From a virus, in the IMG/VR virus record IMGVR_UViG_3300033545_000002, positions 64,464 to 86,051 of that record: a stretch of DNA of 21,588 nt; one strand, written 5' to 3'. Both the position numbers and the translations under genes were made by a program. This document shows positions 882-15,785 of the stretch, one piece after another. The first letter of the stretch is position 1. Each line of letters opens with the position of its first letter. The notes beneath the pieces were generated by a model that was given only the letters and a program-made list of their open reading frames with translations, ran no database searches and was not told where the DNA came from.

Positions 882-889
882 AAAACGGT

Positions 890-1012
890 ATCGCGTTCGA
901 GGGTGGTTGTCTAAGAAATTAAACCTGTGAAGGAGTAAAAACTATCCGACCCTGAACGCGATTATTTTAAACTTTAAAGTTGTTGATTTTCATGTTTTAA
1001 CTTCTTAGACAA
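890..1012 (-). ncRNA. Putative structured cis-regulatory leader or antisense-type RNA upstream of the GT2 gene
   Basis: Stem 890-904 / 949-962 (9 bp + 5 bp). Separately, 907-923 is complementary to 996-1012 (17 bp with one G-U on the minus-strand RNA). Confidence 0.6.
967..993 (-). CDS. Putative leader peptide MKINNFKV
   Basis: ATG 993 to TAA 967 inside the structured leader; translation unproven. Confidence 0.3.
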   Translation of the reverse strand: MKINNFKV

Positions 1013-1014
1013 GA

Positions 1015-1045
1015 CGAAAGTAATTAATCCTTCCAAACCGTCAAA
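1015..1045 (-). promoter_or_regulatory. Bacteroidota sigma70-like promoter
   Basis: TTTG-N19-TACTTTCG on the minus strand, versus consensus TTTG-N19-21-TAnnTTTG. Confidence 0.55.
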
Positions 1046-3412: not shown

Positions 3413-3720
3413 TTTTTAATTTTTAATAACCAATTTATATCAAGTTCTGTTTTCAATGGTCTGTCGGTCTCTTTATCTTTTAGCGTCACCATTCGGCCAC
3501 TCTCGCATTCCTCGAAGATATAGATTCCGGTGATAATAAAGATTCGTCCATTCGTTTTCGGATTGAAATCATCGATGTGAACTTCTTCGTTCGGAAAAAA
3601 TGTTTCGCCGTTTCTGTTCTTACCGTATGTAACTGCGCAAGCACCGCACACATAATATTTCCTGGATGGCAACGCCAACACCACGTCCTCCCGTTCTTCC
3701 AAGCAATTACTGCATCGCAT
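3409..3720 (-). CDS. Hypothetical protein with CxxC...CxxC zinc finger
   Basis: CSNC...CGAC; overlaps both neighbours. Confidence 0.7.
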   Translation of the reverse strand: MRCSNCLEEREDVVLALPSRKYYVCGACAVTYGKNRNGETFFPNEEVHIDDFNPKTNGRIFIITGIYIFEECESGRMVTLKDKETDRPLKTELDINWLLKIKK

Positions 3721-4060
3721 GATCCCTCCTGTATTGTTCGGCTCTTATGAAGATTGTGTCTTTAAATCTTTGGATGTTAGATAGCATCCAATGCTGCCTC
3801 AACCAAGCGTCTGTGTAAGCCCATTGCAAAAAACTTTTAAGCCTTCGCTCTGCCTCCAATTCGACCCACTCAATATTCCCTTCTTCACATCGCTTCCGTA
3901 ACGATTGTAAAATGTACTTCAAATCTCTGGGTTGGCTACCTTGAAAGCTAGGTTTGACACCAAATTTTTCTTCCGTGAACGAAAAGAACACTTCCACCAT
4001 TTTTTGAAAGTGTGGCTCTGGCGGATTTTTTACCTTCGGTGTTTTTTTAGACTTTGACAT
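3707..4060 (-). CDS. Hypothetical protein (possible replication accessory)
   Basis: 117 aa helical protein directly downstream of the primase-helicase. Confidence 0.7.
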   Translation of the reverse strand: MSKSKKTPKVKNPPEPHFQKMVEVFFSFTEEKFGVKPSFQGSQPRDLKYILQSLRKRCEEGNIEWVELEAERRLKSFLQWAYTDAWLRQHWMLSNIQRFKDTIFIRAEQYRRDHAMQ

Positions 4061-5963: not shown

Positions 5964-6542
5964 CTATTCTTGATTTCGTTTTACGAAATGTGGTTGATAC
6001 CCTCCTTCCTGAAATAACTGTTGCTGATCTTTCGTCAATGGTTGCTTTTGCCCATTTTTGAAAATAGCCTCTTTCCCGTCTTCCGAAAACCCAACCGCGC
6101 TTTCTTCTTTCTTTCTTTGTTTATTTCTTTCTTTCTTTGCACCATTTTGCATTGCATTTGCATCCGCTTGCTCTGCATTTGTTTGCAAATGCTTTGCAAA
6201 TGCAGCGTTTCTTCGCTTATCACTTATGTCATTCCTTTTAGCCAAATTCCTTGTAACTCTATTGGATTTCAGTATGTTATCCATTATTAAAAAAAGTTTA
6301 TAGTTGTTAACACAACAGTCTAGTACTTTTTTTATATATGAACTGCTCTCGTTAACATCTTTTGCAATTGCAGCAAAAGTGATCTCGTCAAGCTCTAAAC
6401 TGCCTCCTTCCTCATGCATCATCTCGCAAGTTGCCCAATAAATCCCCAATCCAGACGACTTAAAATCCTTCACCAATGCCCCTATTTTACGGTCATTTCT
6501 AGCGTTGAGATCATGAGAAAAATAGTTTTTGTCGCCAGCCAT
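5964..6542 (-). CDS. DUF4373 / Lin1244-like replication initiation protein
   Basis: YFSHDLNARNDRKI...GLGIYW N-terminal signature, followed by a low-complexity A/Q/N linker. Confidence 0.85.
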   Translation of the reverse strand: MAGDKNYFSHDLNARNDRKIGALVKDFKSSGLGIYWATCEMMHEEGGSLELDEITFAAIAKDVNESSSYIKKVLDCCVNNYKLFLIMDNILKSNRVTRNLAKRNDISDKRRNAAFAKHLQTNAEQADANAMQNGAKKERNKQRKKEESAVGFSEDGKEAIFKNGQKQPLTKDQQQLFQEGGYQPHFVKRNQE

Positions 6543-6545
6543 GAT

Positions 6546-6998
6546 TTAAGTTGTTTCCTCTACGTAAGTACCTTCCATAGCCATATCTCCTAATATTGTT
6601 GCCTGCCAAGCATATAAATGTGTCAAGAATACAACCTCACCTTCTTTTATAGTAAAAAGAAGAATCATTCTATGAACTCCAGGGTAAGCTCTTGGTGGAT
6701 CAACGCTTATAAACCAAATAGGTTCCGGATCAATAGCGTGTCGTTCTTTTCTGAATTTGGTAATTTTATAGTAGGCAAAACACTCTTTTATAAATTCAAT
6801 AATAAAATGACAATCTTTGCAACAGGTGGCGAGATCATCATCTGGAACATCCCAAGGCTCTTTATAATAGGCATCATGATGAACATGAAGTGTTTTTTTA
6901 GTATCCCCACAATATTTACAAGCAAACCCATCTCTTTCTAAAATTTTAAGCCTCTTTTTTTGCCACCTTGGGTCGAGTAGTTTTTCTGAGTAAGTCAT
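6546..6998 (-). CDS. HNH endonuclease family protein
   Basis: YSEKLLDPRWQKKRLKILERDGFACKYCG...LHVHH...CKDCH. Confidence 0.88.
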   Translation of the reverse strand: MTYSEKLLDPRWQKKRLKILERDGFACKYCGDTKKTLHVHHDAYYKEPWDVPDDDLATCCKDCHFIIEFIKECFAYYKITKFRKERHAIDPEPIWFISVDPPRAYPGVHRMILLFTIKEGEVVFLTHLYAWQATILGDMAMEGTYVEETT

Positions 6999-7019
6999 AA
7001 GCGATAAATTAAAAAGGGT

Positions 7020-7161
7020 AGGTATAGAAACAAAAGTCCCCCGCTGGTCGACGGGGGAGCTTAAGTTTCTCGGGCTTTTACCTCCGATATTCTTTAAAGA
7101 CCTTCGTATTCCGACCAGAAAATACTTCGGTTAAATATTATGTATAGTTATGATTTAACAT
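7020..7161 (-). ncRNA. Putative kissing-loop attenuator leader upstream of the HNH/replication genes
   Basis: Hairpin 7037-7058 (7-bp GC stem, extended by 7026-7031/7065-7070 and 7020-7024/7079-7083) and hairpin 7106-7125 have complementary loops: ctggtcg (7044-7050) and cgaccag (7112-7118). Confidence 0.65.
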
Positions 7162-7196
7162 TGTGCGGTAACTTTTAAGAGGAATCAAATTGGAGA

Positions 7197-7229
7197 CTAA
7201 GATAGTGAAATGTTTTTTGATTCACCAAA
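7197..7229 (-). promoter_or_regulatory. Bacteroidota sigma70-like promoter
   Basis: TTTG-N21-TATCTTAG on the minus strand. Confidence 0.55.
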
Positions 7230-7237
7230 ATTATTTT

Positions 7238-7462
7238 CTACCAATTCTGCCAAGGGGCCTTTGCACCTATTTCCAAAATACCTGATTTGTCTTTACGTGC
7301 GTAGAAGAAAGCCTTCGGAGCGCCGTTCATTATTTTCCTGACGGCATATGGAGCATCTGCTTCATATCGGATGGATCGGTCTTTGTTATAAATAAGACAC
7401 TTGGAGCCGACATAAAATCCTGGAATATTTGATTCAAGTCCCAACTGAACTTTTACAATCAT
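7238..7462 (-). CDS. Hypothetical phage protein
   Basis: 74 aa, MIVKVQ...APWQNW, co-oriented. Confidence 0.75.
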   Translation of the reverse strand: MIVKVQLGLESNIPGFYVGSKCLIYNKDRSIRYEADAPYAVRKIMNGAPKAFFYARKDKSGILEIGAKAPWQNW

Positions 7463-7471
7463 AAATTTATT

Positions 7472-9646
7472 TTACTTGAATAGTAATTGCTGCCTGTTTC
7501 CTTGTTCAGCAGCGCGACAATTTCTGATAGCAAGGTCGAAATAGCTTTTCTTCAATTCAAAACCAATTCCATTTCGTCCCATTTTGATAGCCTGAAATAC
7601 TTCGCTTCCAATGCCCATAAAAGGCGTCAGGATCGTATCTCCTTTGTTTGACCATAAGGTAATCGTTCGTTCGATTGTCTGTAACTGAAGCGGCGCAATA
7701 TGTTTCTCGTCGGCTTCCCCACGGCCTTCTCTCCCATTCAACGTATCGCCGTAGTCAATGTCCATCCACACAGGGGATGCGTATTGTTGCCATGTATCGA
7801 CGGATATTTCACATTTCACCGGATGTTCGTGTTCACCTGGTTTTCTGAACACCAGTAAGTAGTCTGGTATTCCGACCCGGCTCATGGCAGCATCTTTTTT
7901 AACCTGCTTATGAAGTAATCCTAATGCTTTAGTCCGCTGCATCTCCGTGACTGGATTTTTCCAAATTGTCACTCTGGAATGATAAATAAATCCAACATCT
8001 TCGAATGACTGTCGGATCATATTTGAAAAATCACGCAATCCAATATACCCTTCTTTACCTTTTTGGATGGGCAAATCCATACAATGAACAACTACATTCC
8101 GGCCGGACCACATGATCCTATGAAGTTCTTTTGCCAAAAAATTGAAAGCTATGAAAAACTCTTTGTAGTCTTTGCTATTACCCATATCTTCCAATTCGTC
8201 ACTGTAAACATATAATTCAGAAAACGGGGGAGAAAATATTGACAGACCAATGCTTTCGTCAGGAATATTTTTAATCAACTGAACACAATCGCCCAATTGT
8301 ATTTTAAAGTTATTGCCGATTTCCTCCTGAAATTGTCGTTCCATTTTTTCTTTTGATTTTAATTTTCGGTTGACGGCTTTAGTCATTTCCTCTTGCATTT
8401 GCTCGAATTGTCGCTCCTTTTCTCTCAATATCCGACCAACGTTTTGCATGGTATCGGTAGTGACTAGATAGACATTCACCTGATCTTTTTGGCCAAAGCG
8501 CCAAGATCGACGAATGGATTGGAATACTGCCTCAAATGAGAAGTCGGGGGCAGCGAATATTTGGTTATGGCAATTTTGAAAATTAAGCCCGGCTCCGGCG
8601 ATTTTGCTCTTAGTGAGTAGCACCCGTATCTTTCCAAGTGCAAAATCGGATAACTTTTCTTCCTTCCACTCTACAGTGTCACTACCACGAACCTCAACTG
8701 CATCAGGAATTAGGCGTTTCAATTCATCGCCTTCCTCATTCTGCTTTATCCAAATCAAAAAAGTTTCATCTGATCCGTTGACAATATCAGCAACTTTAGA
8801 AAGTCTTTTATCCTTAGTCCTGCGTAATTCTTGATTAAATGATGTTGCCGAAACCGCTGAATCATTGAACAACATCCCGTTATCCTTTTTGTCAGTTTCG
8901 ATTTGAAGTTCGATGAAATTTAATGGTGGCAAATCATACCCGGATTGCTCAAACCCAATGTCAGAAGGCTTTTGGAACATAATGGCCCACGTACTTACCC
9001 ATTCCCAAAACACACGATTGCTATGGCCTTTTAGCCGCCATTTATTCGTTTCGCCGCCGTCATGGACAAAATACATAGCCAGCATTTCCGAACGCGGCAT
9101 TACATCTAAAAACTCGCTGTAATTGCCAATCTCCATCGGGCTGTTCGGCGAAGGAGTGGCCGACCATACGGATTTATACGGAGTTCTTTTGAATAAGTCA
9201 ATAATTTGATTCCGATAAGCCCCTTCATGGTTTTTGAGTATGCTGCCCTCATCTAATACAATGCCAGAAAATTCAGGAATCCAATCAACGATGTTATCCA
9301 ATTGGTCATAGTTGATAATGTATATTCCCATCTTTGGCGGTCGTGTTAACTTTTCTACGGGAATATGGATGTTCTTACCTTCTGTAATTGTTTGAGAAGA
9401 AACTGCCAACGGAGCCATGATTAGGACAGGAGCATTCGTATGGTCAACAACCGCCTGTGCCCACCTTAACTGCATTCTGCTTTTCCCCGTTCCTGTCCCG
9501 CTGAACACTCCGTATTTCCCGGCAGACAAAGACTTATTAACAATAAAATTCTGGAAAGGAAACAAAAATGAACTATTGATATTGGCCTCAAACCCGCTAT
9601 GAATATGCTCTTTTCGTTTTGTTTCCAGGAACTGTTCGTAGGTCAC
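7472..9646 (-). CDS. SNF2-like SF2 helicase fused to beta-class DNA amino-methyltransferase (probably N4-cytosine)
   Basis: GTGTGKS, LDEGS, SATP, GLNFQ, QSIRRSWRFGQ; then GDCV, catalytic FSPPF preceding SAM-binding PFMGIGS and GFELK. Confidence 0.92.
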   Translation of the reverse strand: MTYEQFLETKRKEHIHSGFEANINSSFLFPFQNFIVNKSLSAGKYGVFSGTGTGKSRMQLRWAQAVVDHTNAPVLIMAPLAVSSQTITEGKNIHIPVEKLTRPPKMGIYIINYDQLDNIVDWIPEFSGIVLDEGSILKNHEGAYRNQIIDLFKRTPYKSVWSATPSPNSPMEIGNYSEFLDVMPRSEMLAMYFVHDGGETNKWRLKGHSNRVFWEWVSTWAIMFQKPSDIGFEQSGYDLPPLNFIELQIETDKKDNGMLFNDSAVSATSFNQELRRTKDKRLSKVADIVNGSDETFLIWIKQNEEGDELKRLIPDAVEVRGSDTVEWKEEKLSDFALGKIRVLLTKSKIAGAGLNFQNCHNQIFAAPDFSFEAVFQSIRRSWRFGQKDQVNVYLVTTDTMQNVGRILREKERQFEQMQEEMTKAVNRKLKSKEKMERQFQEEIGNNFKIQLGDCVQLIKNIPDESIGLSIFSPPFSELYVYSDELEDMGNSKDYKEFFIAFNFLAKELHRIMWSGRNVVVHCMDLPIQKGKEGYIGLRDFSNMIRQSFEDVGFIYHSRVTIWKNPVTEMQRTKALGLLHKQVKKDAAMSRVGIPDYLLVFRKPGEHEHPVKCEISVDTWQQYASPVWMDIDYGDTLNGREGRGEADEKHIAPLQLQTIERTITLWSNKGDTILTPFMGIGSEVFQAIKMGRNGIGFELKKSYFDLAIRNCRAAEQGNRQQLLFK

Positions 9647-11778: not shown

Positions 11779-11934
11779 ATGGCAGATACGAAACAAATAA
11801 GCGCGACCATTGACGGAGATTTAGCAGAATGGGTGGCTACTGAGGCAAAGGCAGATCGGCGCACGTTTAGTGAAATGGTGGGTATTTTATTGGAGGAGGC
11901 AAAAGCTAAACGGGAAAAATTAGTGAAGAAATGA
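11779..11934 (+). CDS. Ribbon-helix-helix (Arc/CopG-like) transcription regulator
   Basis: Not in the ORF track (51 aa): MADTKQISATIDGDLAEWVATEAKADRRTFSEMVGILLEEA...; alternating beta strand, then two helices with RTFSE turn; ATGA-coupled to the next gene. Confidence 0.85.
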   Translation: MADTKQISATIDGDLAEWVATEAKADRRTFSEMVGILLEEAKAKREKLVKK

Positions 11935-12680
11935 AAACGCCTCCTAAACATTGGCAAAACACCAGCTTGCAGCACATTCCCGGCGAACGATGGACAGACT
12001 GCATATTCATAGACACTAATGGGAAAAGTTACGATTACGGTGACTTATATAAGGTTTCAACGATGGGGCGAGTGAAGAATACTCCGCATTTGCATAAAAT
12101 CAGAAAGGATTGTACTATCCCGGTCAAAGAAAGAATAATGAGGCCAGACAATTTAAATGGGACTGATTATTTGAGAGTTAGGCTCACTAAAAATGGTAAA
12201 AGCAGCGCGCTCTTGGTACATAGACTCGTTATGCTTTGCTTTACAGAAAAAATACCGGGGAAAGACAAGGTTAACCATAAAAAGGGTGTCAAGTGGGATA
12301 ATAGGCTAAAAATGCTAGAATGGTCCGATCATCCTGAGAATATTCAACACGCATATGACACCGGATTGCATCATGGCAGGCCGGGCGAAGAAAGCGCGAT
12401 GGCTAAAATTGACAACAAAACAGCATTGTTGATATTCGATTCTGCTGGTACGCAACATGAGATAGCCATAAAGTTCAATGTCAGTCGTAGTGTAGTATGC
12501 GCCATTAAAAGAGGGGCAACTTGGGGAAAAATAACTAATAAACAACTAGTTAAGGAAAGATTCCCACTATCTACAAGTGATATTTTGGCTATAAGATTAT
12601 CTAATAAATTAGCCACGGATTTAGCCAAACAGTATAAAAAATCGGTCAAGTTAATAAGATTGATAAGAAATGCCGTATAA
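11931..12680 (+). CDS. NUMOD4-HNH homing endonuclease
   Basis: ERW...LYKVSTMGRVK (NUMOD4), VHRLV...VNHKKG..DN...LEW....NIQHA (HNH), C-terminal HTH-like repeats. Confidence 0.9.
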   Translation: MKTPPKHWQNTSLQHIPGERWTDCIFIDTNGKSYDYGDLYKVSTMGRVKNTPHLHKIRKDCTIPVKERIMRPDNLNGTDYLRVRLTKNGKSSALLVHRLVMLCFTEKIPGKDKVNHKKGVKWDNRLKMLEWSDHPENIQHAYDTGLHHGRPGEESAMAKIDNKTALLIFDSAGTQHEIAIKFNVSRSVVCAIKRGATWGKITNKQLVKERFPLSTSDILAIRLSNKLATDLAKQYKKSVKLIRLIRNAV

Positions 12681-13212
12681 TTCAACGATACGATCGAAAG
12701 TTGGGCAATGCAGTTTTGCTGGGTGCAATTATTACGGCCCGTTAACAAAACAATTATGTAACCAGCATTACTGGTTTCGGCTTAGAATGAAGTCGGCCGA
12801 AAAGTTTGTAGAGCGAGAGATAAAGGAGGATGGGCTACAGGATTTAATTACCGATCTTGACGTGCTTGTTAGTCGGTGGGTAAGGTACAGCGCCGTAGGG
12901 CCGGGCAATCTTGTTCAATGCTATACCTGTTCTAATAAATTTCCGCCGTCTGATATTGATGCGGGACATTATATAAGTCGGGGATGTATGCTTTTGCGGT
13001 TCGATGTAGACCGAAATATAAGGCCCCAATGCCAGATTTGCAACCGAACTAAGTACGGGAAGGCGGCTATTTTTGGTCAGAACCTTGAAAAAGAAAGGCC
13101 CGGAATAACCGAAATCCTGTACGAAGAAAGCAAATTAGTTTACAAATGGAGCAGGGAAGAATTGCGCGGCCTAATTGCGGAATTTACCCAAAAACTAAAA
13201 AACCTTAAATAA
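12670..13212 (+). CDS. NinG/Rap-like recombination nuclease
   Basis: LDVLVSRWVR...CYTC...DAGHYISRG...LRFD..NIRPQCQICN. Confidence 0.88.
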   Translation: MPYNSTIRSKVGQCSFAGCNYYGPLTKQLCNQHYWFRLRMKSAEKFVEREIKEDGLQDLITDLDVLVSRWVRYSAVGPGNLVQCYTCSNKFPPSDIDAGHYISRGCMLLRFDVDRNIRPQCQICNRTKYGKAAIFGQNLEKERPGITEILYEESKLVYKWSREELRGLIAEFTQKLKNLK

Positions 13213-15242: not shown

Positions 15243-15293
15243 CATGAGTAACAAACTACAGCAATGGGAGTACAGGGCGATAAAATATTTATT

Positions 15294-15785
15294 ATGGAAC
15301 TAACGATTCATTCAAAAAAATACGGCAATCACACTGTCGCCTTCGATGAGGCGGATAGGCCGATAATTGATTCATATACATGGAGTTTATTCAAGCCGAA
15401 GGATCGTAATAAGTTTTACGCTGTAACCTGCGTTAGCAAACGAATTATATTGATGCACAGGCTGTTGGTTAAGTCTGATTTGCAAATTGATCACATCGAT
15501 GGTAATGGGCTAAACAACCAAAGGAACAATTTGCGGCCTGCGTCTAATTCCCAAAATGCAATGAACAAGGGAGGGGGTAATGGCACGTCCTCCGGCTTTA
15601 AGGGTGTCTCTTGGCATAAGAAAGCCGGGAAATGGTTGGTCCAAATAATTCACAATGGTATTTGGATAAATGGCGGATTTTTTGAATCCAAAATCGAAGC
15701 GGCTGAACGATACAATGAATTGGCTATTGAATACCACGGCGAATTTGCCAAATTAAATGAAATTCCTAAAACTCAACCCCAATGA
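15294..15785 (+). CDS. HNH-AP2 homing endonuclease
   Basis: MHRLL...IDHIDGNGLNNQRNNLR (HNH); SGFKGVSW...KW...G.F....EAA..YN..A...HGEFAKLN (AP2). ATG 15294 preferred to 15264. Confidence 0.92.
   Translation: MELTIHSKKYGNHTVAFDEADRPIIDSYTWSLFKPKDRNKFYAVTCVSKRIILMHRLLVKSDLQIDHIDGNGLNNQRNNLRPASNSQNAMNKGGGNGTSSGFKGVSWHKKAGKWLVQIIHNGIWINGGFFESKIEAAERYNELAIEYHGEFAKLNEIPKTQPQ

Follow-up and report, generated by a model that had tools for sequence, protein, structure and literature searches.

The window analysed here, a stretch of 21,588 nt, covers the final 21.6 kb of a phage contig from IMG/VR that is 86 kb long. On its minus strand, an upstream operon is separated by a gap of 239 nt from a replication operon, and the gap holds a leader with a promoter-like box, a short upstream open reading frame (uORF) and three hairpins, H1 to H3 (Table 1). 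The genes behind the leader, encoding an HNH endonuclease, a DUF4373/Lin1244_N replication-initiator-like protein and a primase-helicase, are close-packed by open reading frame (ORF) spacing. Thymidylate synthase and a UvsX-like recombinase are also encoded in the window; no integrase or repressor was found among its ORFs, and its genes look like those of a lytic phage. The rightward genes include at least two further HNH genes and one for a NinG/Rap-like nuclease (11931-12680, 15264-15785 and 12670-13212), and the phage is rich in free-standing nucleases.

Table 1. Coordinates of the leader and its surroundings (window positions unless a locus is given).
Feature	Position	Strand	Details and basis
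Upstream operon	~11710 down to 7238	minus	Includes the SNF2-helicase::N6/N4-methylase fusion and a 74-aa ORF
SNF2-type helicase fused to N6/N4 DNA methyltransferase	9646-7472	minus	One 724-aa protein
Gap holding the leader	7237-6999		239 nt, between upstream and replication operons
Promoter-like box, Bacteroidota type	7229-7197	minus	TTTG-N21-TATCTTAG; pattern match
-33 TTTG	7229-7226	minus	Followed by a 21-nt spacer
-7 box	7204-7197	minus	TATCTTAG
Hypervariable patch	7213-7152	minus	62 nt; promoter spacer, 5' UTR, uORF codons 2-4
uORF	7161-7138	minus	MLNHNYT, 7 codons and stop
H1	7130-7101	minus	Folding and covariance models
H1 lower pairs	7130-7129/7102-7101	minus
H1 upper stem	7125-7120/7111-7106	minus
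H1 loop	7119-7112	minus	Kissing bases 7118-7112
H2	7087-7084/7073-7070	minus	Conserved hairpin; 4-bp stem, 10-nt loop
H3 terminator hairpin	7069-7026	minus	Terminator scan and covariation
H3 lower stem	7069-7066/7030-7027	minus
H3 upper stem	7058-7052/7043-7037	minus
H3 loop	7051-7044	minus	Kissing bases 7050-7044
H3 U-rich tail	7035-7026	minus	8 U in 10 nt
HNH endonuclease gene	6998-6546	minus	First gene after the terminator; PHROG HNH families
DUF4373/Lin1244_N replication-initiator-like gene	6542-5964	minus	Pfam and PHROG matches
Primase-helicase gene	5960-4074	minus	Pfam and PHROG matches
Type II leader, L051	1470-1775		Example from a same-clade phage
Type II leader, L052	120-345		Example from a same-clade phage
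Type II leader, L063	640-860		Example from a same-clade phage

The leader RNA is about 165 nt long, and the elements of the leader span 7229-7026. The TTTG and the -7 box of the promoter are conserved around a variable spacer in a diverged haplotype (L034) and in two of the three related lineages described below (L250 and L251); the third, L046, has no clear -7 box. Start and stop contexts of the uORF are conserved in all lineages, and its five variants (5, 6, 6, 7 and 7 codons) are always in frame, with the stop 9-12 nt ahead of the upper stem of H1 and 5-6 nt ahead of its lower pairs. H2 has in L250 a 6-bp stem with a GAAA loop. H3 is a canonical intrinsic (Rho-independent) terminator: its upper part (7058-7037) has 7-8 pairs, six of them G-C, and is followed by the U-rich tail, with the lower stem extending it into a long hairpin. 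A scan of the first 20 kb of the window for terminator-like sites ranked it top, and the hairpin is kept in four of four lineages, with U-tracts that are interrupted in all of them. From H3 to the first gene there are 27 nt in the window and about 33 nt in L251.

Seven Watson-Crick pairs can form between the H1 loop and the H3 loop, with a kissing duplex energy of -12 kcal/mol. The original prediction, made from the letters of the window, had placed the promoter-like box, the uORF, H1 and a terminator-like H3 exactly where we find them, leaving H2 unnamed. It had also given the loops 8 bp and put H3 about 20 nt ahead of the HNH start; seven of the pairs stand, the eighth (G7111-U7051) exists in this phage only and would cost one H1 pair, and the distance after the tail measures 27 nt.

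The Rfam search proposed with that prediction (Rfam 15, cmscan of 6500-7800 on both strands, E up to 10) returned no match to a known family, only four chance-level hits to unrelated families, all far under their gathering scores. As a whole, the gap folds only slightly better than shuffled sequences (z = -2.0).

Related leaders and loop-loop covariation

Relatives were sought by protein search with the DUF4373 gene, which yielded a clade at 55-64% identity in metagenome assemblies. The first of these leaders, in L046, stands before a DUF4373 gene whose product is 60% identical and has the same architecture at ~70% nucleotide identity; its loop letters differ and are again complementary. A covariance model built from the window and L046 (R1) found the leader in L250 (E 8e-10) and L251 (E 1.3e-8), so that the family beyond the window comprises three other phage lineages from metagenomes; a second model (R2) was built from all four leaders. 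R1 gave nothing convincing in ~240 other loci, and R2 added no members in the ~100 loci on which it was run, with none from R1 in the other ~130. R2 detected no second copy of the leader in the 86-kb genome, and no similar DNA was found in GenBank phages. In IMG/VR, an exact terminator pattern with a free loop had one match, an unrelated terminator (L033), and a pattern based on H2 had 39 matches, about the chance level, none of which fitted the model. The leader was absent from IMG/VR relatives of the window's HNH gene (L002-L032), from those of the L046 HNH gene and from distant DUF4373 loci in Bacteroidales MAGs. One candidate, L007 (E 0.1), was rejected as a hairpin plus terminator with no loop complement.

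We aligned the four leaders (window, L046, L250 and L251) and counted pairs in the three hairpins, two lower helices and the loop-loop helix. All 115 of 115 cells form standard pairs over 29 pairs, and nine of the 29 carry compensatory changes: three in the kissing helix and two in each of H1, H2 and H3. In 500 shuffles the observed values of pairing and compensation never came up, and registers slid by 1-3 columns gave 38-52% pairing with 0-1 compensatory pairs. The kissing helix is absent from the covariance model behind the alignment, yet it holds three compensatory pairs, and a blind scan for helices kept in all four sequences ranked it first (7 pairs, 3 covarying), followed by H3, H1, the lower stem and H2. 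H1, H2 and H3 were also recovered by MAFFT and RNAalifold, run independently. Across lineages the kissing helix measures 6-7 bp, and its covarying pairs read G-C, U-A and C-G in both the window and L251, A-U, C-G and A-U in L046, and G-C, C-G and A-U in L250, making three loop alphabets among four lineages. The sample of four independent lineages is too small for R-scape-grade statistics; the three compensatory changes across it indicate that selection maintains the complementarity between the loops of H1 and H3. Complementarity across homologs, the point on which the original prediction had been staked, is thus maintained. The leader is a real, conserved and uncatalogued structured RNA.

Chance complementarity beside an ordinary terminator is scarcely credible as an explanation. 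The sequences are few and short complements are common in AT-rich leaders, but shuffling the 179 nt upstream 20,000 times, for the window alone, gave a 7-nt complement to the H3 loop with a frequency of 0.0046, and against this window-only value of ~0.005 must be set three position-matched compensatory double changes in the loops where slid controls had 0-1.

We also weighed a signal at the DNA level, either a 7-bp inverted repeat that a protein dimer recognises or, close to the replication-initiator gene, the structure of a single-strand origin. The two 7-mers do constitute an inverted repeat adjoining the replication genes, and co-evolving half-sites would covary too. Each half-site, however, sits exactly in the loop of a hairpin whose stem covaries, the half-sites are ~60 bp apart, and the second hairpin bears a U-tract typical of RNA terminators. 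Furthermore, eight cells of the alignment are G-U pairs, which the opposite strand would read as A-C; the fold therefore exists only on the sense strand. This favours RNA over a duplex-DNA signal and also speaks against an antisense transcript. We consider the DNA reading very improbable.

Replication modules, loop exchange and other leaders

The HNH gene behind the leader varies among lineages. That of the window is unrelated to those at the same place in L046 and L250, which are related to one another (54% identity), and in L251 there is none, the DUF4373 gene itself lying directly behind the leader. Since L251 lacks an HNH gene and the other HNH genes are unrelated to that of the window, gene order indicates that the leader belongs to the replication module and not to the HNH gene; for the same reasons, we rejected the idea that the leader is part of a mobile HNH cassette. 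The spot behind the terminator appears to have acquired HNH genes more than once. Two unrelated HNH types occupy the site between terminator and DUF4373 gene (window 6546-6998, L046:2637-3032, L250:1838-2164 and L252:70-390; none in L251), where genes for free-standing HNH endonucleases appear to have landed repeatedly.

Loops and proteins do not share one history. The window and L251 have identical loops and an identical H3 cap yet distant DUF4373 proteins, L250 and L251 have close DUF4373 proteins and different loops, and the leader tree disagrees with the protein tree. Such exchange of loops relative to DUF4373 distance (L250/L251, window/L251) looks like the exchange of specificity modules, and it speaks for RNA control that acts in trans and is self-specific, as with P4 CI or P1/P7 C4. 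Leaders stopped at H3 would accumulate, and their loops would pair with leaders being transcribed from other copies of the genome and so determine termination there, giving dosage feedback or exclusion between related phages, with the three loop alphabets as specificity classes. The complementary parts lie on one sense transcript, as in P4 (PMC4825925), and other systems have small RNAs whose terminator loops can act in trans (PMC11979758). Against this, the leader matches neither the Rfam C4 family nor any other, the target is the loop of an intrinsic terminator and not a ribosome-binding or Rho-dependent site, the window shows no sign of lysogeny (neither integrase nor repressor was found in it), and a search of the 86-kb genome for a longer complementary target returned self-matches only. 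We regard control in trans as rather unlikely. Should the contact nevertheless work in trans, it would amount to a specificity system, based on RNA, that controls phage replication.

Sequence variation within the window's own lineage is concentrated at the 5' end of the leader. Contigs encoding an identical DUF4373 protein share the leader, which is 100% identical from the uORF stop onward; over 6 kb in which contigs are otherwise 99-100% identical, 23 of 46 differences concentrate in 7152-7213. The differences in this region avoid the ATG, an A-rich box (7178-7172) and the promoter's TTTG and -7 box, and the diverged haplotype keeps the uORF open as MFYNNYT. A second cluster of differences in the same haplotype lies at 3532-3722, in or next to ORFs of 103 and 117 aa.

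Lambdoid Q proteins read sites in the promoter spacer and initial transcribed region, and the hypervariable patch covers the promoter spacer and the first transcribed bases. The leader could on these grounds be a unit like lambda PR'-6S RNA-tR', with which it shares the order of promoter, ~165-nt leader, terminator and operon; polymerase would stop constitutively at H3 until a phage antiterminator, loaded at the promoter, released it, and the kissing helix would merely compact or stabilise the short RNA or strengthen the stop. We hold this to be decidedly unlikely: no gene for a Q-like or other antiterminator was identified in the window, and it leaves unexplained why the loop-loop pairing covaries most.

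To see how far the design extends, we kept 75 non-redundant loci from those fetched via DUF4373 proteins. Under strict criteria, a 6-nt loop complement within 150 nt upstream was present for 5 of 14 terminators (0.6 expected), and under relaxed criteria a 7-nt complement was present for 5 of 47 sense-strand terminator-like hairpins (1.0 expected). The hits outside the window's leader family, L168 (1880-2000) and L048 (1925-2000), are unrelated leaders before DUF4373 modules. L168 has a consensus Bacteroidota promoter, then a hairpin loop with an 8-nt complement to the loop of a terminator whose end lies 10 nt ahead of the DUF4373 start; in L048, the complement to the terminator loop is 6 nt long. 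The kissing loops may be read as an address code, whose pairing in trans would impose copy-number feedback on the replication genes and sort related phages into 'incompatibility' classes. We give this only limited credence; if true, it would reveal an undescribed general RNA gate of Bacteroidota phages, given that the unrelated L168 and L048 share the design.

Other DUF4373 phages of the same clade (L051, L052, L063, L049 and L053), and also L252, carry a different replication leader, here called type II, with the same kind of promoter, a uORF of 21-25 codons running through the first hairpin, and a terminator. In L051, L052 and L063, which show no loop-loop complement, 0-8 nt separate the end of the uORF from the sequence that leads into the terminator, so a ribosome at the stop would cover the terminator's 5' arm, and this arrangement suggests translation-coupled attenuation in the same phage group. 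The window's leftward operon contains a second gap (882-1040, minus strand), with a promoter-like box (1045-1015), a uORF of 8 codons and a long hairpin whose end falls immediately ahead of the following start codon (z = -2.5). The peptide of this uORF, MKINNFKV, is similar to the beginning of those encoded by the 21-25 codon uORFs in related phages (MQKINYFR...).

A proposed kissing-loop attenuator of the replication operon

The 27 nt after H3 are too short for a promoter, so that all transcription of the replication operon must cross H3, whether it starts at the leader promoter or in the upstream operon. Expression of the operon then depends on read-through of H3, which would make the leader a transcription attenuator. 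On balance, we favour the reading that the sense-strand leader is a kissing-loop attenuator gating the replication operon through terminator H3. This retains the attenuator half of the original prediction, an attenuator or antisense-controlled switch, and sets aside the antisense RNA, given that the fold, with its G-U pairs, can form on the sense strand only. As the controlled set, the prediction had named the HNH, DUF4373 and primase-helicase genes; the replication genes do lie behind H3, and the tie to the HNH gene is broken in L251, which has none.

We propose that the leader RNA has its own promoter and that transcripts arriving from the upstream helicase-methylase operon run through the leader as well. 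It folds into the three hairpins, the loop of H1 kisses that of H3 through 6-7 bp, and the contact would help a terminator with a broken U-tract to form or hold. Whatever unfolds H1 would loosen the gate, a role for which a ribosome completing the short uORF suggests itself, since the position of the stop is such that a terminating ribosome would open H1. Termination would thus be regulated, with the kissing helix promoting it and the uORF as input; the sign of the kissing effect is a guess by analogy with the type II leaders, and the input signal is a guess too. Conservation of the fold and of the uORF supports regulated read-through. If translation opens the gate in both the window's leader type and type II, the kissing helix should promote termination, and this sign fits both the interrupted U-tracts of all four H3 hairpins and, by analogy, the precedent of the cobalamin riboswitch.

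Several features weigh against the attenuator. A 7-bp stem with six G-C pairs may terminate well unaided, and a ribosome released at the uORF stop may leave before polymerase reaches the U-tract ~110 nt further on. With only five codons in L046 and little in common among the peptides, the uORF could have some other role. The kissing contact, finally, may be intramolecular or possibly intermolecular, the sequences fitting cis and trans alike.

Two variants of attenuation were rejected. A uORF that senses asparagine is at odds with Asn codon counts of 2, 2, 1, 1 and 0 across its variants, and a terminator/antiterminator switch with a loop complement that does not extend into the stems. Nor is the leader an attenuator of the trp type: no alternative helix competes with H3, because the complementarity stops short of the terminator stem.

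To our knowledge, gene regulation in Bacteroidota phages is almost unknown, and their hosts have unusual promoters and translation signals. The natural orthogonal loop pairs can serve as compensatory mutants, making the leader directly testable, and would be useful parts for engineering Bacteroidota.

Comparison with known RNA systems

The phi29 pRNA is a small RNA with two mutually complementary loops, which covary among relatives; these loops pair between molecules, building the packaging ring. The phage RNA described here is instead a leader ending in a terminator before replication genes, and it matches no Rfam family, pRNA included. In the lambda late unit, PR'-6S RNA-tR', a promoter gives rise to a short leader RNA that ends at a terminator placed directly before a long operon. 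We know of no loop-loop pairing in that unit, and our window holds no Q-like gene that we could find.

The IncI-alpha and IncB rep leaders, to which the original prediction had likened this one, have a leader peptide ahead of a hairpin whose loop pairs with a distant site before the replication genes. The partner site lies beside the rep ribosome-binding site, control is translational, and an antisense RNA competes. The likeness is a conceptual one, with the phage uORF, a putative leader peptide kept in place and in frame in five variants, lying upstream of a hairpin. It fails at the partner, which in the phage is a terminator loop some 45 nt before the start codon (7050-7044, 46-52 nt ahead of 6998) and not adjacent to the ribosome-binding site, and no antisense gene is evident at the phage leader.

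In P1 and P7, the specificity letters differ between relatives. Like the P4 CI and P1/P7 C4 systems, the phage has complementary segments within a single sense transcript, where they are part of the leader to a replication operon with a primase-helicase gene, and the antisense segment is on the same strand as its target, the H1 loop being complementary to the downstream H3 loop through 6-7 covarying pairs. P4 CI RNA pairs with seqA and seqC, causing premature termination before the replication genes (PMC4825925). The phage leader differs in having no Rfam C4 match and no lysogeny context, and in that its target is the loop of an intrinsic terminator.

In the cobalamin (corrinoid) riboswitch, a kissing loop stabilises the expression-platform hairpin and so sets termination; the L5-L13 loop-loop helix decides the fate of a terminator or ribosome-binding-site hairpin, as verified with compensatory mutants (10.1101/2023.06.26.546531). 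The phage leader resembles it in that the loop of an upstream hairpin pairs with the loop of the expression-platform hairpin, here the terminator's own loop. It differs in having only three short hairpins and a uORF, with neither a B12 aptamer nor an Rfam match and no known ligand. A classical terminator/antiterminator switch differs again, since in the phage leader a hairpin would read the terminator's own loop, which would be a compact and uncatalogued form of transcription control. Because no catalogued RNA family matches the leader and its loop pairing is kept with different letters, it is probably a new kind of RNA gate.
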